From Promethearchaeota archaeon (GTDB lineage Archaea; Asgardarchaeota; Thorarchaeia; Thorarchaeales; Thorarchaeaceae), in the NCBI GenBank assembly GCA_027031765.1, contig JALVPN010000052.1:1-17429 (forward strand): DNA of 17,429 nucleotides, given 5' to 3'. The translations under genes were made by a program, and so were the position numbers. Position 1 is the stretch's first letter; every line of letters starts with the position of its first letter. The notes under the pieces were generated by a model. The model saw nothing but the letters and a program-made list of their open reading frames with translations, was not told the origin of the DNA and searched no databases. Positions 1 to 17,272 of this stretch are shown piece after piece.

Positions 1-2
1 CT

Positions 3-152
3 CTGGGACCCCTTGTCACAGGCCTCGCGCAGTGGGCAAAGGAGAAGGGCATCCAAGTCGTCCAGAACAAGGCCCTGGGGCTCTTGGCAGCGACGAAGGA
101 CCTGGAGGACATGGCAAAGAAAGCACTCGAGGCGAGGAAGAAGCTCATGTGA
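3..152 (+). CDS. 3' end of a CDS truncated by the window edge; product unknown
   Basis: Frame from position 3 reads LGPLVTGLAQWAKEKGIQVVQNKALGLLAATKDLEDMAKKALEARKKLM* (TGA 150-152) with GC3-rich codons like the other genes. Not in the ORF track. Confidence 0.7.
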   Translation: MGPLVTGLAQWAKEKGIQVVQNKALGLLAATKDLEDMAKKALEARKKLM

Positions 153-266
153 TATTGAGCGGCGGGCGCTGGCGCCCTGGCGACTCAACAACGACCATGC
201 CCCCACCGCCAGAGTCATAACGGGATGTGTGCGCACTGCACCCGACGCAAGGGAGATGTGAGGCGG

Positions 267-530
267 TTGATAACAGCGTTCGTCAGTATGTCAGTCACGC
301 CGGGCTCCGACGAGGACATTGTGAGGGAACTTGCAGACGACGAGATGGTGGTCGAGGCATGGCTCACCACCGGGGAGTATGACATCCTGCTCGTCCTCAA
401 GGGGGAGGACTCCTCTGAAATCAATGACTATGTCAACTCCCGCATACGAGAAGTGGAGGGCGTAATCCGCACGACCGTCACGTTTGCAATTGAGCCCATC
501 AAGTTCGTCCGCGACCCCAGCGCTCCATGA
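267..530 (+). CDS. Lrp/AsnC ligand-binding (RAM) domain protein, no HTH, ~87 aa
   Basis: MITAFVSMSV...EAWLTTGEYDILL...IREVEGVIRTTVT matches the AsnC C-terminal pattern (GxYD, I..I.GV..T.T). TTG start at 267 after GTGAGGCGG is inferred; the ORF track starts at 225. Confidence 0.85.
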   Translation: MITAFVSMSVTPGSDEDIVRELADDEMVVEAWLTTGEYDILLVLKGEDSSEINDYVNSRIREVEGVIRTTVTFAIEPIKFVRDPSAP

Positions 531-852
531 ACTCGCGCCACTCCTCCACGGGGAACCGATTCGTCATCTGCTGGTGCTCCTCTAGCACCGCCTCTTCGAG
601 GTCCACTCCAAAGTGCGATGCCAGCTGCAGGAAGAGCGAGAAGGCCTGTGCAAACTCCCGGGCCAGCCCGGACATGTCAGGGGCCTCGTGGCCGAGGCCG
701 ACGGCCTTGTAGCCCTCCTCGACGGTGATGTAACGCGATATCTCGCCCAGCTCCTCAACCAGGTGGGCAAACACCAGCGACGCCGGGAAGCGGTCCCAAC
801 AGCGCTCACGTATGAACGTATCAAAGGACTCTTGGATATCATGTAGGTGCAT
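499..852 (-). CDS. MazG-like nucleotide pyrophosphohydrolase
   Basis: Acidic MazG signature HLVEELGEI...REFAQ, followed by FGVDLEEAV. It starts 9 nt after the tRNA-binding gene stop, with GAGGGG in the gap. Confidence 0.8.
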   Translation of the reverse strand: MHLHDIQESFDTFIRERCWDRFPASLVFAHLVEELGEISRYITVEEGYKAVGLGHEAPDMSGLAREFAQAFSLFLQLASHFGVDLEEAVLEEHQQMTNRFPVEEWREFMERWGRGRT

Positions 853-861
853 CTCTACCCC

Positions 862-1557
862 TCAGTAACGCTTTGTAATATGCAGCACCTGGGCACGCGC
901 ATGGTCAAGGGCACTGGGTGGCGGGTCCGGAAGTAGGCCCAGTGGCACGTCCTGTGACAGACGTTCAGCACCCAAGAACATCGCCTCACTGACAACGCCC
1001 ATCATCTCGACGGGTGGCAACACCGCACAGGCAAGACGCTCGCCCTCGGCAATGCCGGGGATGTTTGTCACGACCCCCCAGACCCGCGTGCCGTCCGAAG
1101 ACCGACACTCTGTCAGGTTCTTGGCCCCCGGCACAGAGCGGGTCCCAGTGACCTCCACTGCAAGGATGTCCACTGCGAAGGCTGGGTCGTCAGGGCAGTC
1201 TCGGAGCCTCCGTGGAAAGCCCTCGACCGTACGGAGCGAGTACTCCACCTCCGCAAGTACGAGGCGCTCCTTCACTGTACCTGGTGAGTAGCCGCTCTTG
1301 GAGAGGGCCGACTCGAAGACCTCGCGGAACCTGCTCACAGCCTCTACAGTACGCCGAGTGGGCCCAGACTCCGCAAGGGCTGCTGCATCCATGTAACTGT
1401 ACTTTATCTCATAGAAGAGCGGGCCCGCAGTCTTGAGGCTCTCCCCGAGCTGACCGTAGTCAATATGGAAACGGAAGCGTCGTCCCGAAACAACCTCGTT
1501 CAGACGGTGTAGTGCGTCCTCGAGTACCAGCACTCTTGCGTCCTTTGCGGTGTCCAC
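862..1557 (-). CDS. Archaeal tRNA-binding protein (helical N-domain + Trbp/MetRS C-terminal-like OB fold), ~231 aa
   Basis: Starts (M)DTAKDARVLV with an EIKYSY motif. OB domain: VVTNIPGI..GERLACAVLPPVEMMGVVSEAMFLG. GTG start at 1557 preceded by GGTGA; the ORF-track extension to 1707 is judged spurious. Confidence 0.85.
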   Translation of the reverse strand: MDTAKDARVLVLEDALHRLNEVVSGRRFRFHIDYGQLGESLKTAGPLFYEIKYSYMDAAALAESGPTRRTVEAVSRFREVFESALSKSGYSPGTVKERLVLAEVEYSLRTVEGFPRRLRDCPDDPAFAVDILAVEVTGTRSVPGAKNLTECRSSDGTRVWGVVTNIPGIAEGERLACAVLPPVEMMGVVSEAMFLGAERLSQDVPLGLLPDPPPSALDHARAQVLHITKRY

Positions 1558-1591
1558 TGCCTTCACCGCCGGCGATATTGTGGTCACCCCT

Positions 1592-1598
1592 GATAAAG
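1592..1598 (-). promoter_or_regulatory. Putative TATA box for the tRNA-binding/MazG operon
   Basis: CTTTATC on the minus strand, ~35 nt upstream of the GTG at 1557, in a GC-rich background. Confidence 0.45.
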
Positions 1599-1762
1599 GC
1601 CTTGTCAGTGACGGGCCAGGCGGGGGTTGGCACCCATCGGCCAAACCCCACACAGACCGAGTGACGGAGACCCGCGTCTGTCCGCGGTAGCGAGACCACC
1701 AGGCCACTGCATGCTGATAGAAACGGGCCCGTCACAGAGGGGAGAACATCGTGGTTGAGAAC

Positions 1763-1778
1763 GAGAAGTGATATAAAG
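1763..1778 (+). promoter_or_regulatory. Putative BRE + TATA box for the longin-wHTH gene
   Basis: Purine-rich GAGAAG followed by ATATAAAG (1771-1778), ~46 nt upstream of the GTG at 1824. Confidence 0.6.
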
Positions 1779-1823
1779 CTACGAACAATATCGTCTTGTG
1801 ACCCGCAAGCGGAGAGGCTCACA

Positions 1824-2441
1824 GTGATCCAGGCAATATACATCCTGATAGCGGACAGCGGTCTTTGCGTCCTCGACCGCAAGTATGGCCAAGCCGAGAT
1901 GGACCCAAACTTGATAAGCGGGTTCCTGACGGCACTGATACAGTTTGGACGTGAGCTGAGCGATGGCAACCGTGTCCATGTCATAGACTTTGGGGCCTTT
2001 GACATCTGTCTGTTCCTCAAGGACAACATCATCGTAGCCGGGATTGTTGACAAGACCGATGATGGGAACGCGGCAATGGCAGTCCTCGCCGAGGTCAACA
2101 GCGCCTTTGTGAGCCAGTATGCAGACGTCCTGAGCCACTGGGACGGGAACCTTGAACCCTTCGACTCGTTCAAGGAGAGACTCGACGAGATTACAAAGAG
2201 CGGCAAGGCATCCGAGCTGAAGACTGTCGTCCCAATCCTCAAGGGCAAGGTCTCACCCATGCTGGTACGCCTCGGCCAGATGACCCAGGAGACCTACGAC
2301 GTTGCGAGGATGTGTCAGGGCAAGCTGACAGCGCGGGACATTGCCGACCAGCTCGGGATTGTCATGAAGGACGTCCAGAAGGCGCTGCATACACTTGAGG
2401 ACATGAAGATGATAGAGTGGCGTGAGATTGGCCAGGAGTAA
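1824..2441 (+). CDS. Longin-domain protein with C-terminal winged helix, ~205 aa
   Basis: (M)IQAIYILIADSGLCV...MDPNLISGFLTALIQFGREL...IIVAGIVDKTD...F...Y is the Asgard-type longin pattern. C-terminus CQGKLTARDIADQLGIVMKDVQKALHTLEDMKMIEW is a wHTH pattern. GGAGAGG precedes GTG 1824. Confidence 0.75.
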   Translation: MIQAIYILIADSGLCVLDRKYGQAEMDPNLISGFLTALIQFGRELSDGNRVHVIDFGAFDICLFLKDNIIVAGIVDKTDDGNAAMAVLAEVNSAFVSQYADVLSHWDGNLEPFDSFKERLDEITKSGKASELKTVVPILKGKVSPMLVRLGQMTQETYDVARMCQGKLTARDIADQLGIVMKDVQKALHTLEDMKMIEWREIGQE

Positions 2442-2478
2442 ACGGCTGCGCATGCGCACACGTATCCCGTCCACCCGT

Positions 2479-2756
2479 CCCGGTCCCACTAGCGCGGGGA
2501 GGGCTCACCACAGATGCGTGACGTACGGTGGAGTGGGCCCGGTCACACAGGTGGATACAGCACTGACATGCTCCCACTGTTGGAAACTATATGCCCGGAC
2601 ACCGTGCAGACGCTGCCCATGACCGGACACTGGAGCACGGTCATCGGAGGGCACCTCACAGACTGTTTCACTGCAGTCGGCGGACTATGTATATGACCGG
2701 TCATCAGTGACCATCACAATCATGGCCCACTGAGTGGTGTCCCCCCCACGTATATG
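2479..2756. repeat. Dispersed short imperfect repeats and a 12-bp palindrome in a convergent intergenic spacer
   Basis: ATGCCCGGACAC (2591), ATGACCGGACAC (2619), palindrome ATGACCGGTCAT (2693-2704), CCCGGTCAC (2538); TATATG at 2588, 2690 and 2751. Confidence 0.4.
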
Positions 2757-2819
2757 CTATCAGATGACAAGTGCCACAAGGACAACTGGGCTCGACCACG
2801 GGGAGCATGGATGTTGGGA

Positions 2820-3548
2820 CTACTTGATCTGGCTCCACTCGTTGCCCGTAGCAATCAGGATCAGGCCAATTACGATGAGGCCGGGTGCGAGCACGCCGGG
2901 GATGGTCGGTGACCCGCTGAACAGGAACGCCGAGAGAGCATCACGTGCCGAGTGGATTGCACGGCCAGTGAACAGGATGAGGAACCCGAGCCCCAACAGG
3001 AAGTTCGAACGCCGCAGGATGCCACCAGACTCGTACGCCAGATACCAGAACAGGATGGGTATGAACAGGGCGTAGCCGGCCCCAGCACCTCCAGAGAGAT
3101 AGAAGCGTACCAGTGGGTCAAGCGGCACCAGACCAAGTACCAGCCCGATTGCGATGGCTGGTGCAGCGAACAGTATCTCGGCCCAGCGCTTGCCGAATAT
3201 CATGAAGCCGGCGGTGGCCGAGAGCGTGGCCAAGGCCATCCACTGGAAGAAGGTACCCACGCGGAGGAAGAACTCCTGGTCCTGGAGCAGTGGCGTGAAT
3301 AGACTGCCGAGACCCCCATACAGCGACGTGCTGTCTGCGTAGAAGTCACCCACAAAGTAGAAGCAACGGCCAATGGCCAACAGCAGGAAGAACAGTGCCA
3401 TTGCCAGTTGGAACGGGTTCTTGTCCTTCCGCCACCTGAAGAGCAGCAGGAAGATGAACACGAAAAAGTAGTACCCTACAACGAGGAACCATAGCCCGAT
3501 GTGGACTTCTCGGATAGCCATGTCGACAGTCTGCATATGCTCAACCAT
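2820..3548 (-). CDS. Polytopic membrane protein, about seven TM helices, ~242 aa, no soluble output domain
   Basis: Seven hydrophobic segments from IGLWFLVVGYYFFVFIFLLLF to PGVLAPGLIVIGLILIATG. ATG at 3548 (alternative 3536). The ORF-track extension to 3920 overlaps the opposite-strand glpA remnant and is rejected. Confidence 0.8.
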   Translation of the reverse strand: MVEHMQTVDMAIREVHIGLWFLVVGYYFFVFIFLLLFRWRKDKNPFQLAMALFFLLLAIGRCFYFVGDFYADSTSLYGGLGSLFTPLLQDQEFFLRVGTFFQWMALATLSATAGFMIFGKRWAEILFAAPAIAIGLVLGLVPLDPLVRFYLSGGAGAGYALFIPILFWYLAYESGGILRRSNFLLGLGFLILFTGRAIHSARDALSAFLFSGSPTIPGVLAPGLIVIGLILIATGNEWSQIK

Positions 3549-3595
3549 CCGCCACTCAGTCGGTCTTGCAGATACGTAAGGAGGGTGTGCATCCC

Positions 3596-3606
3596 AATAA
3601 ATAAAG
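3596..3606. promoter_or_regulatory. AT-rich TATA-like element between the divergent 7TM gene and glp remnant
   Basis: AATAAATAAAG (minus strand CTTTATTTATT), ~48 nt upstream of the ATG at 3548. Confidence 0.5.
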
Positions 3607-3732
3607 CTATGCCGGCTGGCCAATGCCCCCCTCCACACCGTCCCAGCGGGTGGTGACGGTTGTGCGGAAAGGCTTCGTACCACAGTGGACAGGCCATGCC
3701 ATACGACATGAGAGAGGAGGCCTGCTGCGGCT

Positions 3733-3978
3733 GTGAGCAACACCGTGTTCGACGTCGTGGTCATAGGTGGCGGCAGCACCTGGACCGCCACGGCCCGTGA
3801 CTGCACCATGCGTGGTCTGCGGACACTCCTGCTGGGACGCGACCACGTAGCATCAGGGACTGTGGGGACATGCGCGGGCATGATATCCACCGGTCTGAAG
3901 TACATGGACGAGCCCGACATCGTAGACGTGTGTTCGAGCGAGGTCGTCTACTTCAACAGACTGTTAGGGACACCATAG
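3733..3978 (+). pseudogene. glpA: Truncated FAD-dependent glycerol-3-phosphate dehydrogenase (GlpA/GlpD-like) N-terminus
   Basis: FDVVVIGGGSTWTATARDCTMRGLRTLLLGRDHVASGTVGTCAGMISTGLKY resembles the GlpA start, but the last Gly of GxGxxG is Trp and the frame stops after 81 aa. Confidence 0.75.
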
Positions 3979-5097
3979 TGGGCACGGCCGAGTCGGCAAA
4001 GCATACGAGGATGTGTGCCGCATGCCCCAAGATTTACAGACACGTGTACCCGACATTCTTCGCGTGGCGGTCGGATGCTCAGACGCCACAAGGCCGGGCC
4101 CTGCTGTTGCACTACGAGGACACAGAAACAAGGGCACCAGACGACCGTGCTGTCGAAGTCCACTGCAGTGTCTGTAGCGCGGACACTGTAAGGTCATCTG
4201 CGCGACCGGCGTCTACATTGCCCCCACCGTCGAGGCGAGGAGGGCCGGACTGGTCAGCGTGGGACGGGCACCAGAGGGACTCAACCCCTTGCGAGGGCTG
4301 TGGCAGAGTCCCACAACCCGTTTGGGGAGCCGCACGCGTCACGCAACTCGTGGCTTGACCTGACACCAGGTGAGGGCAGGCATGTGGTCTACTCTACCGG
4401 CTGCACCGCTGCATACAGGGAGCGCGAGATGGCCGAGAAGACCGTCATGGTATTACAGCGGCCCGGGTTCCCAGTCACCGTGCTGGACGAGGAGTGGTGC
4501 TGTAGCACACCACTCTTCAGGACTGGACTGGTCGACACCGCGCTGCAACAGGCAGTACACAACGTCAGACTGCTCAACGAGTCCAGTGCCGAGGAGGTCA
4601 TCGTCACCCGCCCGGGCTGCTACAGGGCCCTGACCGAGACCACCAGCACCATGGGCCGACACTGGGACTCCCCGTACGCCACATAGCACAGGTGCTTGCC
4701 GACTCCTAGACCTGCTCCCGGCCGGCGTCCTGGACATCAGGACCACCTACCACGACCTGTACCACCTCGGGAGGAGGGGGGAAAAAGAGTATACGAGGAA
4801 CCCCGGAGTGTGACAGTTCACATCACCACCGGGCCACTGGTCGAGATGAAACGGTACCGGGAACAGGCGACCTGCTGTGGCAAGAGTGCGGGGCTCAGAC
4901 TACTCTTCCCGCAGCAGGCGCACAAAATCGGTGCTGAGGGGGTGCGTCACGCAGGACGCACGGGCGCCGAGATGCTTGTGACCGCCTGTCCGTTCTACAA
5001 GGAGGTGCTGGCTGGACAGGCAGGTCCTGGACTACAGGTGTTCGACCTACCAGGGCTAGTGGCCGAGGCACTAGAACAGGGAGACGCCGATAGGTGA
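3978..5097 (+). pseudogene. Frameshifted (Fe-S)-binding protein, GlpC/HdrD-like (two 4Fe-4S motifs + two CCG domains)
   Basis: Collinear fragments in different frames: CAACPKIYRHVYP; GHCKVICATGVYIAP; HNPFGEP...STGCTAAY...EEWCCS...VTRPGCY; VRHIAQVLAD; TYHDLYHLGR; VYEEPR...CCGKSAG...LVTACPFY. Several frameshifts and lost Cys ligands. Confidence 0.85.
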
Positions 5098-5137
5098 AAA
5101 CAAATTAGTGCAGGGACACCACCAGTGTACGAGACGG

Positions 5138-6253
5138 ATGGACGCCAAGGAGATACTTAGACTCAAAGTGCGCCTGTTGACAGAGGGCGCGGTGCTACCC
5201 GAGGGCGTGTGGGGCGGTCGGAAGGGTGGTGCCGGGCCGGTCGGCGCCAGGTACTTCCTGCTACCTAATGGGAGGGCGTGTGGCGTCCCTGTGAGGCGTG
5301 GCCGTGTGGCAGAGGCCTACGGCTCGGCGCCGCTGGATACCACAGAAGACCCGTCAGTGTGGCTCTACGACCACAAGGTGGAGCTGAGGCTCGTACCACG
5401 GCCCAAGTTCTACGAGCGCACGACCGATGATGGTGTCCCATACCACAAGATTGCACTCCTCCATGGCAGCAGCACCCTTGCGACTACAGTGTACCAGGCG
5501 TGTAGGTACTGGGACCGTGGCCTCCAGTGCAAGTTCTGTACTATCCCGTTCTCGTACCAGGGCGGTCACACCGTCCTCGAGAAGACACCCGGGCAGGTAG
5601 CGGAGGTGGTACAGGCTGCAGAAGAAGAGGGCGTGATCACTGACATCCTGCTGACCACTGGCACCCCTGACACTGTGGACATGGGCTGTGACAGGCTGCT
5701 CCGGGTCGTGAGGGGGATACGGGAAGTGTCGGACCGGCCAATTGGGGTCCAAGTGGAGCCACCTGCAGACCTGAAACTGATAGAGGAGCTGCATGCAGCG
5801 GGTGCAGATGCGATAGGCATGCACATCGAGGCTGCAGAGGAGGAGGTCAGGGCCTACATGTGCCCGGGCAAGTACGAGTACGCGGGCCTCGGAGTCTACG
5901 AGCGTGCGTGGCTCGCTGCGGTAGACCTCTTTGGTCGTGGGAACGTAAGTACCTTCATACTCCACGGCCTTGGAGAGAGCCCGGAGTCGGTCCTGGCCAT
6001 GGCCGACTGGGCTGCGGAACGGGGAGTGCTGCCTGTTGTGACCCCCGTACGGCCTGCACCGGGCAGCCAGCTCACAGACTACAGGCCGCCATACGTTGGT
6101 GCCCTTGATGATGTCGTCGACCTCTACCACCGCCTCGGCCAGATCCTCTATCGCTGGGGCTTGGAGCCCAAACGCACCATGGCCGGCTGTCACAGGTGCG
6201 GGGCATGCACGCCAGTCCAAGAGGCCTTCGACTCAGCAGCAGCGGCCCGCTAG
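5138..6253 (+). CDS. Radical SAM protein, MSMEG_0568-like, ~371 aa
   Basis: N-terminal RKGGAGP; non-canonical CX8CX2C (CRYWDRGLQCKFC, 5501-5539); LLTTGT; C-terminal GCHRCGAC (6188-6208). ATG at 5138. Confidence 0.8.
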   Translation: MDAKEILRLKVRLLTEGAVLPEGVWGGRKGGAGPVGARYFLLPNGRACGVPVRRGRVAEAYGSAPLDTTEDPSVWLYDHKVELRLVPRPKFYERTTDDGVPYHKIALLHGSSTLATTVYQACRYWDRGLQCKFCTIPFSYQGGHTVLEKTPGQVAEVVQAAEEEGVITDILLTTGTPDTVDMGCDRLLRVVRGIREVSDRPIGVQVEPPADLKLIEELHAAGADAIGMHIEAAEEEVRAYMCPGKYEYAGLGVYERAWLAAVDLFGRGNVSTFILHGLGESPESVLAMADWAAERGVLPVVTPVRPAPGSQLTDYRPPYVGALDDVVDLYHRLGQILYRWGLEPKRTMAGCHRCGACTPVQEAFDSAAAAR

Positions 6254-6494
6254 TCGACACTGGGCCCGTGCAGACATCGCACACAGAGGACAGCTGTAAG
6301 TGGGAGGGACGACGACGCAGCATATCAAGGCATACCAAGGGCCGTCGCAGTGGACAAGGCCGGGCCCCACCATGCCGTGACGACCGTCCGACCGGACGCG
6401 TTGCTTGTGACACCATCTATCGCCCAGACAGGACAGCCACCATAATGGGCGTTTCTGGAAAGGAGCGGGCCGGATGTGCGGGCCTAGAATGACT

Positions 6495-6505
6495 TAACAC
6501 TGTTA
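6495..6505. promoter_or_regulatory. Short inverted repeat (possible operator/TATA region) upstream of GNAT
   Basis: TAACA-C-TGTTA, an AT-rich patch ~52 nt before the ATG at 6558. Confidence 0.3.
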
Positions 6506-6557
6506 TGTGACTGCATACACTCTGGGACTGACCGACCAATAGCCCGCAACTGGAGGG

Positions 6558-7061
6558 ATGTCCATGGACACACCGGCCAAGAAGATGGAACCGGAAGAGA
6601 TCAAGATTGTCGAGTTCGGCGAGGAGGACGCCGAGGAGATATCCGAGCTGTTCCGCCAAGTCTGGCCCCTTGAGACCCAGTACCCGGAACACTGGCGGCA
6701 CGCCCGGATGTACCCACCAGAGAAAATCATCGAGGAAATGCGCGCCGGGTATCACTACTTCGGTGCTAGGCTGGGGGGCAGGATAGTCGGGGTCTACAAG
6801 GCCATCATTACAGAGAAGGGTTTGTACGGAGAACACCAGACTGTCCGACCAGAGTGCCGCGGCAGCGGTCTTGCCTCAGCCATGTACATCCAGTTTGCTG
6901 AGTACGGGCGACAGCACGGCTGCAAACGCAACTACTGCAACATCCTTGTCGGCAACAAGGTAGGTGAGAGGCTCATGCGTAAGTTCGGCTTCAGGCCCTG
7001 GGGAGACCCGTACTACCAGGCCGAGGGCATGCTCGTACAGATGTATGAGAGGCCACTGTGA
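6558..7061 (+). CDS. GNAT-family N-acetyltransferase
   Basis: Acetyl-CoA motif A (TVRPECRGSGLASAM) and motif B (N...ERLMRKFGF); GGAGGG precedes the ATG. Confidence 0.85.
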   Translation: MSMDTPAKKMEPEEIKIVEFGEEDAEEISELFRQVWPLETQYPEHWRHARMYPPEKIIEEMRAGYHYFGARLGGRIVGVYKAIITEKGLYGEHQTVRPECRGSGLASAMYIQFAEYGRQHGCKRNYCNILVGNKVGERLMRKFGFRPWGDPYYQAEGMLVQMYERPL

Positions 7062-7559
7062 ACAACTGCCCTACGTCGTGACCCCCGACCGATGGGCACT
7101 GTTGGTGACGGGACGCATGTGCTACCCAGGGCCCCAAGGTGCGGGCGACGGGATGTGAAACATGCAGGACATGTAGTGCACGACCACTCGTAGGGCCACC
7201 GCACTGTCCGCATAGGACGCTACCGGTCGAGTAGTTACCGTAGCCCGCGAACAGATACCAAAAGACACGGGTCAGAGACTGTACTCGTAACGCCATGGGC
7301 AGCAGGCACGTACGGCCATCGGGACACACTGGTGGGAAAGGGATAAAGGATTGGATGATGTGGGTGAGGTCTCCAAGAACATGGGTGTCTGCAGTGCGAG
7401 TGGTACCTACATGGGGCCATATCGTGAGACTGGCCTTCTGGTACAGCGAGGCCGCAAGAAGACTGGTGAGGCCTGGCTAGGACAGGAGTGCAGTTGCAGA
7501 CACAGGTGGCACCACCAGAGTGGAGTGGGCCCGTAGACCCCGGAGGTGTGGTCAGTAGG

Positions 7560-9224
7560 ATGCAGGTATACCCGGTACTGGTCGATGGTGAGGAGGTAGA
7601 CACAGGGGTCCACGTGGAGTTCCCGGACATGGAACAGGTCGTGGAGGACCCGGGCATCGGCATTGCGCTCCGCATGAAACGGATGCCTGCTGTGGCAGGG
7701 CTGGTGTTCCGGTACCTGCCGGGACTGATACCGGGGAGCAGGGCAGAGGCACGGTATCTCCGGGACTACAGGCGGCACCACGGGGTCCCCAAGTACACAC
7801 GTGACGAGCTGGAGAACGCCGTGTATGCACTGGTGTGCCAGTCCCGGGAGGAGGACATACGGCGCGCGCTTGCAGCTGGGACTCGCGACCACAGACGCCT
7901 GTACAACCCGTTCAGGTGGCCCGGGATGGGTGTGACACTGGAGGGACGTGTGGATGCACTCTACCGTGCAGGCCTAGCAGTGAGGGACAGGTACGACGAG
8001 TTCAGGGAGGTCTCGGTGAGAGAGGGGGTGCCAGTGAGGACGTTCGAGTGGACATGGCGCATGTTCACGGAGTACCTTGAAAGGGAGACCTTCGAGTTGT
8101 GGGCGCAGGAGCTGGACGTGGTGAGCGCGCCGGGGAGGGACGGGGGACAGAACTACCGGTTCAGGGAACCATATGGTGTGGCCTGCTTGTTCACGCCGTA
8201 CAACTCGCCACTGGCACTCGGGATCCTGAGCATAACATCATCAGTACTCGCTGGCAACGCGACAGTGCTGAAGCCACCGAGCAAGGTGCCACTGTCAACG
8301 GTCCTGCTCGCCCGGGTGTTCGTGACGGCCTTCCGCGAGCTCGGGATGCCACGGGCGATGCTGCAACTACTGACCGGTGGCGGAAAGACCATGATGGCGC
8401 GGTTCATTTCGGACCCGGCAGTGGGTGCCCTGGTGTGGTACGGCGACAGCGACACAGGGATTGGACTGTGGGCGGAGGCGACCCTGCGGCGGGTACAGAT
8501 GGCGCCAGAACTTGCGGGGAGCGACGCATGTCTTGTGTGGGGACGTGATGTCGACCTTGAGGCTGCGGCCAGGATGGTCGTGAGGGGGCGGTACCTGGGC
8601 AGCGGGCAGGCGTGTATGGCGGTCAAGAGGCTCCTCGTACAGGACCAGCTACACGACGACCTCGTGGCACTGATAGTGGAGGGGGCAGAACAGCTGCGGG
8701 TCGGCCTGCCGTCGGATCCGTCGGTAGACCTGCCGCCAGTGGGGGTGAACGCAATGTACACGCTCCTCGACCAGATGGAAGACGCCCGTGCAAAGGGCGC
8801 CCGGGTGGTTACGGGGGGTTACAGGTGTGACCACACGGGTGCAGAAGACCCGGCAGGACTTTTCTACAGGCCGACCGTGCTCACCGACGTGACACTGGAC
8901 ATGCGTGTGATGCGCGAGGAGGTGTTTGCACCTGCACTCCCGGTATACAGGGTGCGGTCGCTGGACGAGGCGATTGCAGTCGCCAACTCCTCACGGTTCG
9001 GTCTGCGGTCGTCGATATTCACATCGGAGGAGGGGGCAGTACGCAGGTGGACGAAGGACGTGGAGGCTGCGGGCGTCATCGTCGGACAGGACCACCTGTA
9101 CTTCGACCCGCACATGCCACACCTGGGCGGGTACAAGGACTCTGGCATCATCGGTGCAAAGTACTTCCCGGTGATGCTGACACGCCTCAAGTATGTTCAT
9201 TTAGGCCCGGGAGTACGACTCTGA
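7560..9224 (+). CDS. Aldehyde dehydrogenase family protein, divergent, with N-terminal insertion, ~554 aa
   Basis: EPYGV...PYN, LAGN..VLKP, ELAG (catalytic Glu), GQAC (catalytic Cys), EEVFAP, FGL, LGGYKDSG. ATG 7560 (MQVYPVLVDGEEV) preferred; GTG 7488 is possible. Confidence 0.9.
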   Translation: MQVYPVLVDGEEVDTGVHVEFPDMEQVVEDPGIGIALRMKRMPAVAGLVFRYLPGLIPGSRAEARYLRDYRRHHGVPKYTRDELENAVYALVCQSREEDIRRALAAGTRDHRRLYNPFRWPGMGVTLEGRVDALYRAGLAVRDRYDEFREVSVREGVPVRTFEWTWRMFTEYLERETFELWAQELDVVSAPGRDGGQNYRFREPYGVACLFTPYNSPLALGILSITSSVLAGNATVLKPPSKVPLSTVLLARVFVTAFRELGMPRAMLQLLTGGGKTMMARFISDPAVGALVWYGDSDTGIGLWAEATLRRVQMAPELAGSDACLVWGRDVDLEAAARMVVRGRYLGSGQACMAVKRLLVQDQLHDDLVALIVEGAEQLRVGLPSDPSVDLPPVGVNAMYTLLDQMEDARAKGARVVTGGYRCDHTGAEDPAGLFYRPTVLTDVTLDMRVMREEVFAPALPVYRVRSLDEAIAVANSSRFGLRSSIFTSEEGAVRRWTKDVEAAGVIVGQDHLYFDPHMPHLGGYKDSGIIGAKYFPVMLTRLKYVHLGPGVRL

Positions 9225-9270
9225 TGACCACCAGAGGACTGGAGAAGAGATAGGGAGCACGGTGTGCACA

Positions 9271-10605
9271 ATGGAGAAGGAGACCCCATCATCTCTGTCA
9301 TCAGTACGACAACTTGCTGTCAGGGCGCTGGAACAGTATGACAGCGGGAGGGGCTCTATGAGGAAGGTGCTCCGGGGGCTGGTGGGTGTTGGACTGACCG
9401 CCGACCAGCATGGGGTACTCTACTCCCTGACACTGGGGACGGTGCGGCGGCTCAATACGATTGACTTCATCATTGCCCGGACTCTGCGCCGCTCCCGACT
9501 CGACACGCTCGCCGCGGAGAGGCGTGCCGCACTCCGGCTCGCCATCTATGAGTGCAGGTGGGGCGGGTCAAGACTGAGCAGGGCCGTCGAGGCGTACTTC
9601 CCAGACGACACAGAGATGGCAAGAGTTGTCAGGCGTGCTCAGGGCCTCGACCTTGACAGTGCCACCGCACACCTCCTACTGGCCAACCAGCTCAGCATCA
9701 AGTGTTCACACCCGACCTTTCTGGTCGAGACGCTCCTCGGACACCTCCCCGAGGAGGAAGTGCGTGAGCTGCTGAAGAAGAACAACGACCGCCGGAAGCA
9801 CTACCTCAGGGTGAACCAGTTCCGGGCGCGGAACAATGACGATATCATTGGTCACCTCCGTGAGCTGGGTGCAAAGATTGTCCCCGACCCTGACATCGAC
9901 GGCCTGTTCCAAGTCGTGGAGAACGCCCAAAAGGTCATCGACTCGCAGTACTTTGTCGACGGCGACGTGATGGTACAGGACAAGGCCAGCGTGGTCACCG
10001 TGAAGGCCCTCGACCCGCAGCCCGGAGAGGTCGTCTGGGACGCATGCGCTGCCCCCGGCCAGAAGACCGAGCTGATATGGGAGCTCATGAGGGGAGAGGG
10101 GCGGCTGGTAGCATCCGATGTCCACAGGCAACGCGCCCGGGACGCAAAGGAGCGGCTCGACAGGTTCGGCTGTCCCGGCGTCCAGTGGGTCCACGGGGAT
10201 GCCTCAACAGCCCTAGTCCGTGGTGCCGACCGCGTCCTCATTGATGCGCCGTGCACCTCGGTCGGGATGGTACAGAGCCACCCGTCCTTCAAGTGGCGGC
10301 TGAACCGACGGGCACTCCTGAACCTGACAACAGTCCAGAACAAGATACTTACCGGCATTGTCAAGGCGTACAGCGGCTGCCCGGACACGGTCTTCGTGTA
10401 CTCGACGTGCTCGCTCCTACCCCAGGAGGGGGAGTGGCAGGTGGACTCGCTGCTGCGCACCTTTGACATCGAGCTGCTAGACCCGGGCTGCACCGGTGAC
10501 CCGGGGTATGCCGGTTTCGAGTGCTCGCAGTACGTCCGGAGGCTCTTCCCACACAGACACGAGACGCACGGCTTCTTCATAGCTAAGTTCAGGGTCGGGA
10601 GCTGA
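9271..10605 (+). CDS. RsmB/NOP (Sun/Fmu) RNA cytosine-C5 methyltransferase with NusB-like N-domain
   Basis: DACAAPGQKT (motif I), DAPCTSVG (motif IV Cys), YSTCSL (motif VI Cys), PH...THGFFIAK; N-terminal LGTVRRLNTIDFII...LRLAIYE. Confidence 0.92.
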   Translation: MEKETPSSLSSVRQLAVRALEQYDSGRGSMRKVLRGLVGVGLTADQHGVLYSLTLGTVRRLNTIDFIIARTLRRSRLDTLAAERRAALRLAIYECRWGGSRLSRAVEAYFPDDTEMARVVRRAQGLDLDSATAHLLLANQLSIKCSHPTFLVETLLGHLPEEEVRELLKKNNDRRKHYLRVNQFRARNNDDIIGHLRELGAKIVPDPDIDGLFQVVENAQKVIDSQYFVDGDVMVQDKASVVTVKALDPQPGEVVWDACAAPGQKTELIWELMRGEGRLVASDVHRQRARDAKERLDRFGCPGVQWVHGDASTALVRGADRVLIDAPCTSVGMVQSHPSFKWRLNRRALLNLTTVQNKILTGIVKAYSGCPDTVFVYSTCSLLPQEGEWQVDSLLRTFDIELLDPGCTGDPGYAGFECSQYVRRLFPHRHETHGFFIAKFRVGS

Positions 10606-11530
10606 GTCGTCGCTCAACAGACTCCATCACCCTGCGCGCGAACTCCCGGTCGTCACGGAAACTCCATGGGATCTTCAGGAAGAGCACCGCCGCCTCGTCA
10701 ATCGTGGCCCGGTCACGCTCGATCAGTGCCTTGAAGACGAGCTTGGTCCACTGGAAGCACACACTGTCTTGGAAGTACTGTTTGAGGTCTGGCCGGGCTG
10801 CGAGCTCGGTGAGGTACATGAGACCGTCCTTTGGGCGCCCGAGCATCAGTTGTGCGAGTGCAGCCATGCACGCAAAGGTGACCCCGTTCTTTGCCATGCC
10901 ACTGGCGAGGTATTTCTCGGCCCCCTCACGGTACTCACGGGCCTTGCGCTCGTACAGACTGCGGCCGTCCACCACTACCACGTCCCTTGGCCCGGTCTTC
11001 TCGGCCTTCTTGAGGGCCAGGCCACCAGCAAGGGCGGCCTTGAGCTCTGCCTGCATTGCCGTGAGGTCGGGCTCGGTCTTCAGCTTGCGGGCAGCAGCAA
11101 TCAGGGACATGCCTGCACGGAAGAGCGACGGCTTGATGTCAGGGCGCCGCACCGTCGGGTCACCGGTGGCAATACCACGCTCATATATGCCCCGTGCATA
11201 CCGGAAGAAGTCATAGCCCCGGTCAATGAGGTTGTTCTTCGTTGCCAGCTCGATGCCCTTGACAAGCGTCATGATCGCATTGTCGGTCTCCTGGAGGTTC
11301 TCGAACTGGTTTGCCGACTCCATGAGCCATAGGAAGGCATCAGTGCTGTTCTCTGCAATGGCCTCCTGGGCCTTGAAGAGGGCGCGGTAGGCGTCCACAC
11401 ACATCACCGCAATGTCCTCGGAAGCACACTTTGCATTGACCTCTGCAGCCGGCAGCCTGACACCCCGCAGTCTACAGGAATAGCCATCAAGCCCCGACTC
11501 CAGCCACTCACACATAGGACCGGCAGCCAT
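10589..11530 (-). CDS. Hypothetical protein: N-terminal Cys4 cluster + alpha-helical (TPR/SNAP-like) repeats
   Basis: 313-aa ORF with normal codon bias; C-x11-C-x15-C-x8-C, then Ala/Leu-rich amphipathic helices. Start 11530 or 11515. Confidence 0.75.
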   Translation of the reverse strand: MAAGPMCEWLESGLDGYSCRLRGVRLPAAEVNAKCASEDIAVMCVDAYRALFKAQEAIAENSTDAFLWLMESANQFENLQETDNAIMTLVKGIELATKNNLIDRGYDFFRYARGIYERGIATGDPTVRRPDIKPSLFRAGMSLIAAARKLKTEPDLTAMQAELKAALAGGLALKKAEKTGPRDVVVVDGRSLYERKAREYREGAEKYLASGMAKNGVTFACMAALAQLMLGRPKDGLMYLTELAARPDLKQYFQDSVCFQWTKLVFKALIERDRATIDEAAVLFLKIPWSFRDDREFARRVMESVERRLSSRP

Positions 11531-11594
11531 ATCTCACATCCCCTGACAGAGTCTATGGGCACCAAGGGGACCGTGTTCTCTGACGCCACTCAGC

Positions 11595-11602
11595 AATAAA
11601 AA
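11595..11602. promoter_or_regulatory. Putative shared TATA element of a divergent gene pair
   Basis: AATAAAAA / TTTTTATT lies ~65 nt from start 11530 and ~64 nt from start 11666. Confidence 0.45.
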
Positions 11603-11665
11603 CCAATGCTCGCTGTATCGCTATGCTTTTCAGCACTGGGGCCCCGGCATAGGTGGGGCCAGTGA

Positions 11666-12064
11666 ATGACCGATGACGACCCAGAGCTTGCACTGCTGCG
11701 ACGAAAGAAGATGGCCGAGCTGATAGAAAGAGAGAAGAGGCGCAAGGCCGAGGCCGAGCGCAAGCAGAAGGTGGACGCTGAACGCGCCAAGCTCCTCAGA
11801 CGGTTCCTGACACCAGACGCGGTCACCTACCTCGAACACCTGAAGGAGTCACAGCCGGGCATCGGACGTCGCGTCGAGGATGTCATACTATACCTGATTG
11901 TGTACCAGGGGTACAGACAGACCGTAACAAGGACGGACCTGATGTATGTGGAGAGGCAGCTGAAGGGAGAGGGGCCACGGATCCGTGTGCAGCGCGATGG
12001 CGAGGTCTCCGACTTTGGGAGCTACGTGCGTGATGCCGTGCGTCGCCACAGCTCATCCGACTAG
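11666..12064 (+). CDS. PDCD5/TFAR19-like double-stranded DNA-binding protein
   Basis: DPELALLRRKKMAEL...AER..LLRRFLTPDA..YL..LK...P.....VE..ILYL matches the PDCD5 pattern (D.EL..IR, LTPEA..RL, P..A..VE). Confidence 0.75.
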   Translation: MTDDDPELALLRRKKMAELIEREKRRKAEAERKQKVDAERAKLLRRFLTPDAVTYLEHLKESQPGIGRRVEDVILYLIVYQGYRQTVTRTDLMYVERQLKGEGPRIRVQRDGEVSDFGSYVRDAVRRHSSSD

Positions 12065-12957
12065 CTGGACGAGAGGGCACGCATCTTCCACTCACGCACC
12101 TTGTACTTGAGCGACTCGGTGTCACCACCCGCACTGCGCCATGAGGATGCGGTCCTCCGCATCTCGAACATGAGGGCACCACCACGGCTCAGCTGTTGCT
12201 CAAGCGCATCAGCAGCCTCTTCGAGCGCCCTTGCCACAACGGCAGGCTCGTCAGTACGGCCGATGATGTCTACCAGTGAGTCGAATATCTCAGCCGGACT
12301 TGCGGTCTGCCAGGCTGCGGTCGGTACCTCCACCTCCGTGTACTTGCGTCCCAGCACGACTGTCTGCGCGTCCTTGAACTCCAGCTCCCCCGCATCAACA
12401 AGACCGTCCACTGCGCTGGCGACCTCCTGCACATCAGCCACAAGGGCAGCAGCGATTTCTTCGAGCCGCGCGCGGCGTTTCTGGAACAGCAGCAGGAAGA
12501 CCTTGTGTTCGAGGTCACCGACCTCCATGAGTGTCTGGCGTAGCCGGTCGACTGCGCCCTCTTCTCCGGTCACGACTGCGAGAGAGGCGTCCTGGAGGCG
12601 CGACAGACGGCCTTGGAGGGAGCCGAGCAGGCGCTGGGACTCTTCCACCTGACCCCTCAGGTCATCCGTTGCACCGGGTGTACGGACACGGGGCGCGGCG
12701 GACTGTCCGGCCCTCATGCTCTGGACCTCCTTTCCCAGCCGGTCAAGCGCGTCCTTGTAGCGCCGTACTTCGGCCCGTAATGCCTGTGTCTCCTGTTCCT
12801 TCTCTGCCACCTGTTGCTCCAAGGTCTCGACCCGTACTGTGAGCTCGTTCGCCCTCCGACGACTTGCCGCGAGCTGTGCGTGGAGGGTCTCAATCTTCTG
12901 GTTGAGGGCTGCAATCTGGAGCGTCTTCTCACGCAACCGTTCGTTGATGTCGGACAT
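12061..12957 (-). CDS. Hypothetical protein: long coiled coil + winged helix + C-terminal helical domain, ~298 aa
   Basis: Heptad-rich residues ~1-125; wHTH-like KVFLLLFQKRRARLEEIAAAL..DVQEV..AVDGLVDAGELEF; C-terminal helical bundle ending LKYKVREWKMRA. ATG 12957 (GTG 12963 alternative). Confidence 0.8.
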   Translation of the reverse strand: MSDINERLREKTLQIAALNQKIETLHAQLAASRRRANELTVRVETLEQQVAEKEQETQALRAEVRRYKDALDRLGKEVQSMRAGQSAAPRVRTPGATDDLRGQVEESQRLLGSLQGRLSRLQDASLAVVTGEEGAVDRLRQTLMEVGDLEHKVFLLLFQKRRARLEEIAAALVADVQEVASAVDGLVDAGELEFKDAQTVVLGRKYTEVEVPTAAWQTASPAEIFDSLVDIIGRTDEPAVVARALEEAADALEQQLSRGGALMFEMRRTASSWRSAGGDTESLKYKVREWKMRALSSS

Positions 12958-12988
12958 GTACACTCAACGAGCAGTACAATCCAGACCA

Positions 12989-12994
12989 TTAAAA
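12989..12994. promoter_or_regulatory. Putative bidirectional TATA box
   Basis: TTAAAA / TTTTAA centred 32 nt from ATG 12957 and 30 nt from ATG 13024, suggesting near-leaderless transcripts. Confidence 0.55.
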
Positions 12995-13023
12995 GCAAAT
13001 CCCTCACCGACCCTACGGTCACA

Positions 13024-13785
13024 ATGCAGTACTTTGATGCGCACACGCACCTCGACATGAAGCACTATGATAACGACCGCGACCGCGTGATTGCACGTGC
13101 TCGTGATGCAGGACTGGTGGGCATGGTCACCTCGTCCACAGGACCGGGCTCGTTCAGACGGACCCTCGGTATCGTTGAGAAGTACCCGGGCCTCGTCCAC
13201 CACTCTGCGGGCTGCATTGTGTCACGCCTCACGCCCGGAGAGGCGGAGAAAATAGTCGTGCTGACGCGGCGGTACGCCTCCCAGATAGTCGCTGTGGGAG
13301 AGGTAGGCCTTGACTACTACTGGGTGCGTGATGCCGGGGCACGGAGGGCACAGGAGCCGCTGTTCCTGAGATTCATAGAGCTCGCAAGCGAACTCGCCCT
13401 GCCGATGGTCGTCCATGCGCGGAGAGCCGAGAGAGAGGCAGCCGAAATGCTTGAGCGACACTTCGACGGCGACGTGCTGATGCACTGTTTCGACGGGCCG
13501 AGGGAAGTGGCACAGCAGGTGGCCGACAATGGGTGGTCAGTCACATTGCCAGCGAACTTCAGCAGGTACAGGAACCGTCGTGAGGCTGCGAAACTCCTTC
13601 CGTTGACACAGCTCATGCTTGAGACCGACGGGCCGTACCTGTCACCTACAAGTGGACGAAACGAGCCGGCAAACGTACGTCTCGGCTGCAGGGCGCTGGC
13701 AGAGCTCCTCGGGCTCGAACCACAGGAGGTGGCAAAGGTCACCACAGACAACGCACTGAGGTTCTACCGACTCGGGGGCCCCTGA
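13024..13785 (+). CDS. tatD: TatD family metal-dependent hydrolase (DNase), ~253 aa
   Basis: FDAHTHLD, GEVGLDYY, VVHAR, MHCF, ETDGPY and RNEP motifs. ATG 13024; the ORF-track extension is spurious. Confidence 0.93.
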   Translation: MQYFDAHTHLDMKHYDNDRDRVIARARDAGLVGMVTSSTGPGSFRRTLGIVEKYPGLVHHSAGCIVSRLTPGEAEKIVVLTRRYASQIVAVGEVGLDYYWVRDAGARRAQEPLFLRFIELASELALPMVVHARRAEREAAEMLERHFDGDVLMHCFDGPREVAQQVADNGWSVTLPANFSRYRNRREAAKLLPLTQLMLETDGPYLSPTSGRNEPANVRLGCRALAELLGLEPQEVAKVTTDNALRFYRLGGP

Positions 13786-13839
13786 CCGATAGTGCCAAAT
13801 GCAAATGTTGGTCTCTGAGAGTGAGGGAACGAGTACAAC

Positions 13840-14637
13840 ATGTACGAACGTCAGTTCATCAACTTTGACGGCATCTCCCTGAGAGACCCAGTCGCCATAA
13901 TCGGACTGCCCGGCATAGCGAGTGTGGGAAAGATAGCTGTGGAAACGCTGGCCTCCGTACTCCATGCGCAGAAGGTGATGGACTTCTTCTGCGACGACTT
14001 CCCACCGCGAGTCATTGTACGTGATGGCATCTCTCACTTCCCAAAGTCGTCACTGTACCTCTACAGGGCCGCGCCTGACGAACCACACGATGTCCTCATA
14101 CTCAGCGGGGACTTCCAGCCGACCTCAAGCCAAGGGGTGTTCGAGTACGCCGACTACGTTGCAAAGAAACTGAGCTACCTTGGCACAAAGGAGGCATACG
14201 CACTGGCCGCCTACGAACAGGGCTACGAGGAGTTCTTTGCGTTCTACGGTGAGCACGGTCGGGCACGGGTATACGTCACGGCGAGCTCGGAGGAGATCCT
14301 TGAGCGGGCCATGTGTTGCGAGGGCACGATAAGGTTCGCATATGGAGCGGTCAACGGTGCCAACGGTGTCATACCGGCATGGGCACATACGATGTACGGG
14401 ATTGAGAGCGCGTGCTTCCTCGGCGAAACACTGGGCATGATCAAGCTCGACTACAGGGCAGCCCAGCGGGTACTGGAGGTCATCTCGTCACTCACCGACC
14501 TGGAACTAGACCTGTCAGTCCTAGACGACGACGCTGAGAAGGTCAGGGAGTTCCTAGCGTGGGCGCAGAAGGAGATTGCCCAGAGGGAATCGGAGGAGAG
14601 CGACGGCGAGCGGCCGCCAGACAGGTACATCGGCTGA
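13840..14637 (+). CDS. PAC2 family (proteasome assembly chaperone-like) protein
   Basis: PVAIIGLPGIASVGKIA, DFPPRV, ILSGDFQP, G.NG, CFLGET...D.RAA..VL and a C-terminal RYIG. Confidence 0.85.
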   Translation: MYERQFINFDGISLRDPVAIIGLPGIASVGKIAVETLASVLHAQKVMDFFCDDFPPRVIVRDGISHFPKSSLYLYRAAPDEPHDVLILSGDFQPTSSQGVFEYADYVAKKLSYLGTKEAYALAAYEQGYEEFFAFYGEHGRARVYVTASSEEILERAMCCEGTIRFAYGAVNGANGVIPAWAHTMYGIESACFLGETLGMIKLDYRAAQRVLEVISSLTDLELDLSVLDDDAEKVREFLAWAQKEIAQRESEESDGERPPDRYIG

Positions 14638-14682
14638 GGCAGTCCCCACAGCGTGCATGGCCCACCAGTACACCCAGAACAG

Positions 14683-14874
14683 TCACTCGACCAGCTCAGG
14701 GCCCAGTACATCACTCACAGAACCCCGACTGTCAAGGTTCACATAGAAGTGGTGGTCGTTGTGCTCCACACGCACTGTCACTGGGAACCGGTGGTGACCG
14801 GCCACGAGCTCAGGGCCCGAATCAACAGGCGCCATCTCAGAACAGACAGGACATCGCACGTACTTCTTGACCAT
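14683..14874 (-). CDS. Small putative Zn-binding protein (CxxC...HxxH), ~63 aa
   Basis: MVKKYVRCPVC...FPVTVRVEHNDHHFYVNLDSRGSV. GAGGT precedes ATG 14874; an alternative GTG at 14913 overlaps the upstream TGA (GTGA). Confidence 0.7.
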   Translation of the reverse strand: MVKKYVRCPVCSEMAPVDSGPELVAGHHRFPVTVRVEHNDHHFYVNLDSRGSVSDVLGPELVE

Positions 14875-14909
14875 CGATACGACCTCTTTTCCAGACAGAA
14901 CGGTGTCGG

Positions 14910-15317: not shown

Positions 15318-15364
15318 TGCACATCCCTCGTAGGTTGAGTTGCAACAACACACCGAGTCATTTG

Positions 15365-15371
15365 TTTTATA
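15365..15371 (-). promoter_or_regulatory. TATA box for the two-gene minus-strand unit
   Basis: TATAAAA on the minus strand, ~48 nt upstream of TTG 15317. Confidence 0.65.
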
Positions 15372-15380
15372 GAAGTTCCG

Positions 15381-15924: not shown

Positions 15925-15964
15925 GGTAATCCCACTTTCCGCAACAATGAAGTGAGGAATACAG

Positions 15965-16732: not shown

Positions 16733-16737
16733 GGAGC

Positions 16738-16995: not shown

Positions 16996-16996
16996 G

Positions 16997-17269: not shown

Positions 17270-17272
17270 GAG

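Follow-up and report, generated by a model that had tools for sequence, protein, structure and literature searches.

What a very small protein that joins a longin domain to a single winged helix might do in an archaeal cell, and how it stands in relation to the eukaryotic GATOR1 complex, are the questions raised by one gene of a Thorarchaeota genome. The gene occupies positions 1824 to 2441 of the forward strand of contig JALVPN010000052.1 (assembly GCA_027031765.1, Promethearchaeota archaeon, family Thorarchaeaceae), positions 1 to 17,429 of which were analysed here and are referred to as the window; on translation it begins with GTG, ends with TAA and encodes 205 amino acids. The longin-based proteins that regulate the lysosomal Rag and Arf GTPases are NPRL2 and NPRL3, FLCN and FNIP, and C9orf72 and SMCR8, and how these arose in eukaryogenesis is an open matter. 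A preliminary description, made from the letters of the DNA alone, had proposed that the archaeal protein may be a compact prototype of a GATOR1 or Rag-regulator subunit and not a simple transcription factor. The analysis identifies the gene as a strongly conserved core Thorarchaeota member of a large Asgard radiation of 'NPRL2-like longin' proteins, composed of a longin and one winged helix of the NPRL type, and points, with middling confidence, to a predicted role as a non-catalytic platform or adaptor for a nucleoside triphosphatase (NTPase).

The N-terminal domain (amino acids 1 to 127, positions 1824 to 2204, forward strand) was delimited by model topology, structure matches and column statistics. 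In an AlphaFold2 model of the whole protein, built on an alignment of 27 full-length relatives and having a mean per-residue confidence (pLDDT) of 85.7, residues 2 to 124 run strand-strand-helix-strand-strand-strand-helix-helix, which is the longin topology; DSSP assigned strands to residues 2-9, 14-20, 51-56, 59-66 and 69-76 and helices to residues 28-43, 81-104 and 111-124, and beyond the longin found a strand at 134-139, three helices and a strand at 197-202. Compared with solved structures by VIA-align, the domain matched Sec22b (Z 15.2), VAMP7 (Z 15.1) and Ykt6 (Z 14.0) over 119 to 121 residues at root-mean-square deviations (rmsd) of 2.3 to 2.5 Å, as well as Fuzzy (Z 14.5), Mon1 (Z 12.4) and the sigma and mu chains of AP adaptors (Z 12 to 13), with Roadblock/MglB proteins lower (Z 10 to 12, only about 100 residues aligned). 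A profile of the family, when searched against PDB sequences, found AP-2 sigma (E 1.8e-4) and also the VAMP7 longin. On the protein itself the Pfam Longin family (PF13774) stays below its gathering score (15.2 bits against 26.2, E 0.02); Clat_adaptor_s reaches E 1.8e-6 in some relatives, and a paralog on contig C11 (28 bits) and protein P0166 (30 bits) both exceed the cut-off of Fuz_longin_1. Judged by its modelled topology and these matches, the domain is a true longin, as the preliminary description had supposed, and the limits given there for the two domains (about 1824 to 2195, and 2226 onward) were correct to within a few codons.

By structure and by profile alike, this longin is closer to those of SNAREs, adaptor sigma chains and Fuzzy/Mon1 than to the longin of NPRL2. 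Its best affinities at the level of sequence are with the first longin of FUZ/MON1/HPS1 (PF19036) and with the adaptor sigma chains (PF01217), which are longin platforms of Rab guanine nucleotide exchange factors and of coats without the character of a GTPase-activating protein (GAP), and which differ from the present protein in being built of three longins or serving as coat subunits, with no winged helix. Over 152 representatives, the family of this domain is marked by the signature S-G13-[ILV]-C, D27..L30.SGFL.A...F..E44, F95...Y99 and W106.G108....F113..F116.

The more particular likeness to GATOR1 resides in the C-terminal domain (amino acids 134 to 205, positions 2223 to 2438, forward strand), which was recognized from a domain model, PDB matches and weak Pfam matches. 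Modelled alone (78 residues, pLDDT 91.4), it opens with a strand (TVVPIL), continues with a short helix and then three further helices, and closes with a single strand, and the segment V135-V136-P137-I138-L139-K140, beginning at nucleotide 2226, does mark the start of the winged helix that had been placed there from its sequence. A basic stretch, K140.K142...R149, follows the N-terminal strand, and a turn of the form C164-x-G166-x-x-T169 is also present; the hairpin wing after the third helix is absent from the model, in which the other long strand precedes helix 1.

When this domain was re-examined with Foldseek, chains of GATOR1 or SEACIT took seven of the eight top rows among the best 1000 chains: 8adl_S, a SEACIT Npr2/3 chain (residues 242-312, Z 9.2, rmsd 1.9 Å over 70 residues); 9o5d_C (residues 258-331, Z 9.0); 9o5a_C (258-331, Z 8.8); 9h4q_T (242-312, Z 8.7); 9v0j_A, a chain of GATOR1-KICSTOR (172-241, Z 8.6); 8fw5_C (258-331, Z 8.4); and 7t3b_C (258-331, Z 8.0), all seven at an rmsd of about 2 Å over 70 or 71 of the 78 residues. 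An exhaustive comparison with 48,161 PDB representatives brought only four chains to Z 8, including 8adl_S (Z 9.2) and 8fw5_B (residues 172-242, Z 8.4, rmsd 2.0 Å); the next-best row stood at Z 7.2, and winged helices of transcription factors scored Z 6.8 or less with 49 to 64 residues aligned. The best structural matches in the PDB are, in short, the winged helices of NPRL2, NPRL3 and Npr2; the refuting outcome named in the preliminary description, a winged helix with no NPRL2/3 match, did not arise. Chains were named by their size and the composition of their complexes, with those of about 362 residues taken as NPRL2 and those of 400 to 460 as NPRL3, and on that naming the matched element would be the first winged helix after the longin in NPRL2/NPRL3-type chains. 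Structure-based identity to NPRL2 amounts to 16% over 70 residues, and that to regulators of the AdcR/ZitR type to 21-23% over 53 to 56 residues.

Two other known winged-helix modules were considered as explanations of this domain and rejected. The PqqD/RRE family (PF05402) was suggested by the C-x-G-x-x-T turn and by matches to RRE structures at Z 6.2 to 7.2, but its profile does not match the gene; nor does that of DUF742 (PF05331, the winged helix of the conservon protein CvnC), which was found weakly and only on a paralog on contig C145 (E 0.025 in a genome search, 6.5e-4 by hmmscan).

For the whole protein, Foldseek comparison of the model returned 9v0j_A, an NPRL2-sized chain, as the top PDB match (E 4.5e-6, 243 columns), with both domains aligned in order; more NPRL2-sized and SEACIT chains fell within the top nine, and single-domain longins followed at E of about 2e-5. 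VIA-align laid 183 to 186 residues of the two domains onto 8fw5_C and 8adl_S, with a large rmsd because the orientation of the domains differs, and among the matches listed, apart from these, only a few chains of coat subunits, 9qpq_L (209 columns, rmsd 25.6) being one, were aligned over a length of two domains. NPRL2 and NPRL3, and their yeast equivalents Npr2 and Npr3, form the longin core of GATOR1/SEACIT, the GAP for RagA/Gtr1, and resemble the present protein in having an N-terminal longin directly followed by a winged helix with a leading strand. A plan of this kind, an N-terminal longin and then two or more winged helix-turn-helix (HTH) repeats, was predicted for NPRL2/3 by Levine et al. 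2013 (PMC3747258).

The likeness is nevertheless limited, as far as models can tell, to architecture and to a particular variant of the winged helix, and falls short of showing membership in the NPRL2/NPRL3 family, because further hallmarks of that family were not found and the identity of the winged helices is low. The Pfam families NPR2 (PF06218) and NPR3 (PF03666), the first of which the preliminary description had named as a check, match neither the protein nor its 27 relatives in hmmscan, and a search of the genome yielded a single unrelated match to PF06218 (E 0.2, contig C213) and none to PF03666. Nor did NPRL2/3 appear among the best 60 PDB sequence matches of either a single-sequence or a profile search. 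The catalytic arginine finger of human NPRL2 is Arg78, in a loop of the longin. In the corresponding part of the archaeal family, taken as the region from strand 3 to strand 5 (amino acids 50-76; Arg78 was not mapped by superposition), no arginine is conserved among the 152 representatives, and the most basic columns of the longin are position 19 (58% R/K) and position 85 (53% R/K). Absent, too, is the GP motif that precedes strand 2 in GAP-type longins (NPRL2, FLCN, SMCR8 and C9orf72) and in one class of Heimdall longins (2025 survey, PMC12290439): in its place stands S-G13-[ILV]-C15, with G13 present in 92% and C15 in 67% of the representatives and the three residues most frequent at position 14 not including proline. 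IML1/DEPDC5 (PF12257) was searched for up to an E of 1 and went unmatched in this 95% complete genome, which may hold a very divergent homolog.

In its dimensions, moreover, the protein differs from NPRL2 and NPRL3, which are 380 to 1146 amino acids long and carry several winged helices and a C-terminal dimerisation domain, whereas it ends at residue 205, three residues past the last strand of its only winged helix, and has no adjacent paralog with which to form a heterodimer. The NPRL2/GATOR1-like architecture that had been claimed from the sequence is therefore upheld in the order of its domains and in the top structural match, and not in any NPR2 or NPR3 sequence signal. Such a likeness is compatible with remote common ancestry, which it does not prove.

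The gene is a constrained core gene of the Thorarchaeota. A word-index search retrieved 223 homologs, nearly all of them Thorarchaeota 'hypothetical proteins' of 199 to 229 amino acids with 75-83% identity. Of 251 Asgard genomes sampled, 59 are of the family to which this one belongs, and 54 of these contain a full-length ortholog (52-83% identity), as does the single further family of the order that the sample covered; identity is 72-83% over most Thorarchaeota genomes and drops to 52-54% in one genus (g12). Many other Asgard families have full-length relatives of about 200 amino acids with 32-38% identity, and a match at E 1e-10 or better was found in 192 of the 251 genomes. The strength of the constraint can also be gauged against one other Thorarchaeota genome, where the protein is 77% identical and ten neighbouring genes are 45-82% identical. 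Two orthologs bear the JGI label 'nucleoid DNA-binding protein', which was rejected as probably stemming from a sub-threshold match to HU-HIG (E 0.014).

Around this gene the genome holds some 25 paralogs of the longin domain, which occur in varied company. Paralogs in which a longin is joined to winged helices lie on contigs C11, C27 and C145, with further ones on C123, C192 and C61, and some of them have two or three winged helices. The paralog on C11 (6597-7205; L016:3598-4206), a longin and winged-helix protein of 202 amino acids, is 27% identical; directly upstream of it lies a gene for a MinD/ParA-type ATPase (L016:2606-3397), and a gene for a tetratricopeptide repeat protein stands divergently upstream. 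On C27 a tandem pair of paralogous longin genes (7297-8151 and 8159-9544; L017:3298-5545) encodes proteins of 284 and 461 amino acids with two to three winged helices, and is a better candidate for an NPRL2/NPRL3-like heterodimer than the single gene under study; it is followed by genes for an ADP-ribosylglycohydrolase (L017:5587-6540) and a MinD/ParA-type ATPase (L017:6694-7494). Another tandem pair, on C145 (10640-11506 and 11510-11881; L015:4641-5882), lies downstream of radical SAM and DUF2797 genes; its first product has a longin and two winged helices with weak matches to DUF742 and HTH_47, and its second longin gene is cut by the end of the contig.

Fusions are found as well. A protein of 285 amino acids (C216:14519-15376; L022:2520-3377) unites a longin with an Arf-like GTPase (Arf E 8e-20), and on C207 (230-1570; L026) an open frame cut by the contig start encodes a GTPase, then a longin, then a winged helix. 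In other genomes, a longin 38% identical to the present one is fused to a Ras-type GTPase (P0138, E 2e-44) and a longin relative is fused to a TIR domain (P0135). Feature and shape searches of the ESM Atlas returned only Asgard clusters, without informative names; those of this shape contain Arf/Ras/Roc, receiver, V4R or TrmB domains, the Arf/Ras/Roc domains being found in clusters of 308 and 283 amino acids. An ADP-ribosylglycohydrolase gene adjoins a longin and winged-helix gene at two unrelated loci, that of P0124 in another Asgard archaeon (L004:6001-7659) and that of the C27 pair (L017:3298-6540), an adjacency that may be due to chance or may reflect a recurring link.

From these associations a tentative picture of function can be drawn. 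A nucleotide-switch protein, the product of a gene at some other place in the genome, would dock on the longin as on a platform, and would be a small Arf-, Ras- or Rag-like GTPase or, possibly, a MinD/ParA-type ATPase; the winged helix would not read specific DNA sequences but would serve as an adaptor between proteins, as it does in GATOR1. A non-catalytic platform or adaptor in the manner of NPRL3, Mon1 or Fuzzy seems more likely than an arginine-finger GAP, because the hallmarks of a GAP were not found. Besides the fold and the winged-helix match, four lines of evidence favour such a role: (i) dimers of longin and Roadblock domains are platforms for GTPases (Levine et al. 2013, PMC3747258); (ii) members of the subfamily are fused or adjacent to GTPases and MinD-type ATPases; (iii) within GATOR1, the intermediary (TINI) domain of NPRL2 and the C-terminal domains of NPRL2/3 make contacts with proteins (PMC8534245), and the matched winged helix of NPRL2 (residues 172-241) would belong to one or other of these; and (iv) several features of the family speak against a role in reading DNA.

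This last point rests on the exposed positions of helix 3, which among the 27 sequences are mixed or acidic (acidic at position 183 in 16 and at position 192 in 11), conservation in the helix being limited to hydrophobic positions of the core; on net charge, the median being +1 for the winged-helix domain and -10 for the whole protein; and on the promoters of 13 orthologs, in which the stretch beyond the TATA box showed neither a palindrome nor an operator in conserved form, an absence that is weak negative evidence only. Co-folding of two copies with a 27-row alignment, which scored 0.03 against a mark of 0.42, was counted neither for nor against dimerisation.

Several observations weigh against a platform or adaptor. 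The structural support consists throughout of predicted models, and the partner is an inferred one; the conserved neighbours at the locus include no gene for a GTPase, Roadblock or MinD protein. The margin in Z over other winged helices, although consistent, is modest (1 to 2.5 units), and the four chains that attained Z 8 or more include 3k9t, an unrelated peptidase domain (Z 8.8, although at an rmsd of 3.9 Å). By sequence profile, finally, the families nearest to the winged helix are DNA-binding ones, namely Lrp (E 9e-5), TFE (2e-4), AdcR/MarR (4e-4) and CodY, and the Pfam TrmB family is matched in 19 of 27 relatives (E up to 1).

The chief rival account takes its strength from these last facts. 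It supposes a transcription regulator of the kind represented by CodY: contact with DNA would be made by the winged helix, and the longin would have the task of dimerisation or of sensing, with a ligand or an attached GTPase perhaps acting as the gate. We regard this account as possible though doubtful. At the level of sequence, every match of the C-terminal domain is to a winged helix that binds DNA (TrmB, HTH_24, MarR, Lrp, TFE and CodY), and a PDB search with the single sequence ranks the CodY HTH among its best matches (E 0.056); the winged-helix profile also matches eS25 and RPC6. The basic K140.K142...R149 stretch ahead of helix 1 is conserved, and the gene stands alone behind a promoter of its own, as do those of many regulators. 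The small alpha/beta sensor folds longin, GAF and PAS are related to one another, and CodY-type regulators, like this protein, place a C-terminal winged helix after an N-terminal domain of profilin-like fold. In CodY, however, that domain is a GAF and not a longin, and the winged helix is of the canonical DNA-binding type, whereas on the present protein all Pfam HTH families stay below their gathering scores (TrmB 21.3 bits against 25.6, E 2.4e-4; HTH_CodY 20.8 against 27, E 2.9e-4). The missing hairpin wing, the unconserved and often acidic face of helix 3, the acidity of the whole protein, the promoters without a shared palindrome and the closest structural matches, which are to winged helices that do not bind DNA, all speak against such a regulator.

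An improbable variant combines the two accounts: a small GTPase carrying GTP (or an ATPase of the MinD type) would dock on the longin, while DNA or RNA would be bound by the winged helix by way of the conserved K.K...R stretch. If true, a nucleotide switch would be coupled directly to nucleic acid or chromatin, an arrangement with no known counterpart, and it would suggest that the winged helices of NPRL2/3 descend from an archaeal module for binding nucleic acids.

Also unlikely is a longin of the trafficking or adaptor type (resembling those of SNAREs, AP sigma chains or TRAPP) that binds a membrane or cargo partner and no NTPase. Its appeal lies in the closest longins by structure and profile, which are those of Sec22b, VAMP7, Ykt6, AP sigma/mu and TRAPP subunits, and in the matches of some relatives to the clathrin-adaptor family already mentioned, but the protein has no SNARE motif or transmembrane segment and no adaptor large-subunit gene nearby, and the modules joined to relatives of its longin are GTPases, TIR domains, receiver domains and winged helices, not those of SNAREs or coats. 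Least probable of all is a genuine proto-GATOR1 subunit with catalytic activity, a GAP akin to an NPRL2 ortholog, which would present an arginine finger to a Rag/Gtr-like GTPase of the same genome, for although it could draw on the architecture and the winged-helix match, on candidate Gtr1/RagA-like GTPases in the genome (C58:1308, C77:23496 and C208:16995) together with 15 Roadblock proteins, and on the ancient link between NPRL2-like longins and starvation signalling proposed by Liu et al., it is opposed by the absence of any Pfam NPR2/NPR3 match, the replaced GP motif, the want of a conserved arginine in the loops from strand 3 to strand 5, the failure to find IML1/DEPDC5, a longin that leans toward SNAREs, adaptors and Fuzzy-Mon1, and the single winged helix. 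Of the prototype of a Rag regulator envisaged in the preliminary description, what holds are the order of the domains and the structural match of the winged helix; the GP motif, DEPDC5/Iml1 and an adjacent GTPase or Roadblock gene were not found.

The gene carries upstream signals of its own. Alignment of the 200-nucleotide upstream regions of 13 Thorarchaeota orthologs revealed, as the sole strongly conserved stretch between the divergent genes, the block ACGAGAAGTGATATAAAGC (positions 1761 to 1779, forward strand), which corresponds to an archaeal promoter element of B recognition element (BRE) and TATA box lying about 45 to 53 nucleotides 5' of the start codon. In the sequence of the window a Shine-Dalgarno-like GGAGAGG (1811 to 1817, forward strand) is placed 7 nucleotides ahead of that codon, and the orthologs have in common a GGAG-type element (GGAG or GGGAG) 7 to 10 nucleotides 5' of the start, which is TTG, GTG or ATG at the identical position in all 13 aligned loci. 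A longer frame opening with the TTG at 1755 is unlikely to represent the real start, because it begins upstream of the TATA box. The gene is monocistronic, with its own promoter; a scan for bacterial promoters and terminators, which is unsuited to archaea, gave no result. The window has a G+C content of 60%, and the Thorarchaeota genome to which it belongs measures 2.95 Mb. Among the sequencing runs matched, no RNA run contained the locus, and the sole run containing the stretch is one of DNA from a hydrothermal-vent metagenome, probably the source sample.

The genes that surround it in the window are of mixed character. Divergently upstream, at 862 to 1707 on the reverse strand, lies a gene with an Alpha_Helical domain (PF18489, E 1.4e-13) and a sub-threshold tRNA_bind match (25.6 bits against a cut-off of 27); a second Thorarchaeota genome (locus L001) has the longin gene paired with this neighbour as well, at only 47% identity for the neighbour. 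The convergent neighbour (2820 to 3920, reverse strand) is a conserved open reading frame belonging to no Pfam or NCBIfam family, whose real start probably lies well inside the 366-codon frame, because only residues 129 to 364 align (73% identity) to a gene of 265 amino acids at L001. Farther along, at 4696 to 6253 on the forward strand, a CCG cysteine-rich domain protein of 133 amino acids is directly followed by a radical SAM protein of 381, after which comes a GNAT acetyltransferase (6558 to 7061). On the reverse strand, 10589 to 11530 encodes a 313-residue protein of no family and 12061 to 12963 a coiled-coil protein of 300 residues with weak coiled-coil Pfam matches only, both conserved at L001 with identities in the range of 49-51%. 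Between 11666 and 14637 there extends a run of housekeeping genes of eukaryotic and archaeal type, including those for a PDCD5-like dsDNA_bind protein, a TatD DNase and a PAC2 proteasome-assembly chaperone; this gene content is common to L001, its order relative to the longin gene being rearranged.

The preliminary description had connected the longins of Asgard archaea with NPRL2 and had left undecided whether the family was already described. It was: Liu et al. (bioRxiv 10.1101/2020.10.19.343400; Nature 2021) reported NPRL2-like longin proteins from most metagenome-assembled genomes of Thor and a few Loki genomes, together with many further NPRL2-like longin clusters of orthologous genes (asCOGs), and Rodrigues-Oliveira et al. 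2022 (PMC9834061) used NPRL2-like longins as a class of eukaryotic signature proteins. The existence in Asgard archaea of a family combining an NPRL2-like longin with a small C-terminal domain is thus part of the published record. Like the present family, that of Liu et al. has a longin with a small NPRL2-type C-terminal domain, occurs in most Thorarchaeota genomes and includes longins fused to many other modules, and both the distribution and the modular paralogs reported here fit the radiation that they described. Identity with the family of their figure 5c is left unclaimed, because longin and winged-helix proteins form several families in this genome, differing in whether they have one, two or three winged helices, and the family of Liu et al. 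could be one represented by a tandem pair. A search of the literature found no experiment on any member of the family.

The concept of NPRL2-like longins in Asgard archaea being already in print, the contribution made here is a well-characterised member of the group and a set of constraints upon it: a protein that is probably non-catalytic, that has a single winged helix, and that is accompanied by about 25 paralogs. A nearly invariant protein of 205 amino acids, comprising a longin and only the first of the NPRL-type winged helices, offers a tractable subject for work on structure and partners, and in its two domains it could reveal what the unit of longin and winged helix did before there was a GATOR1.

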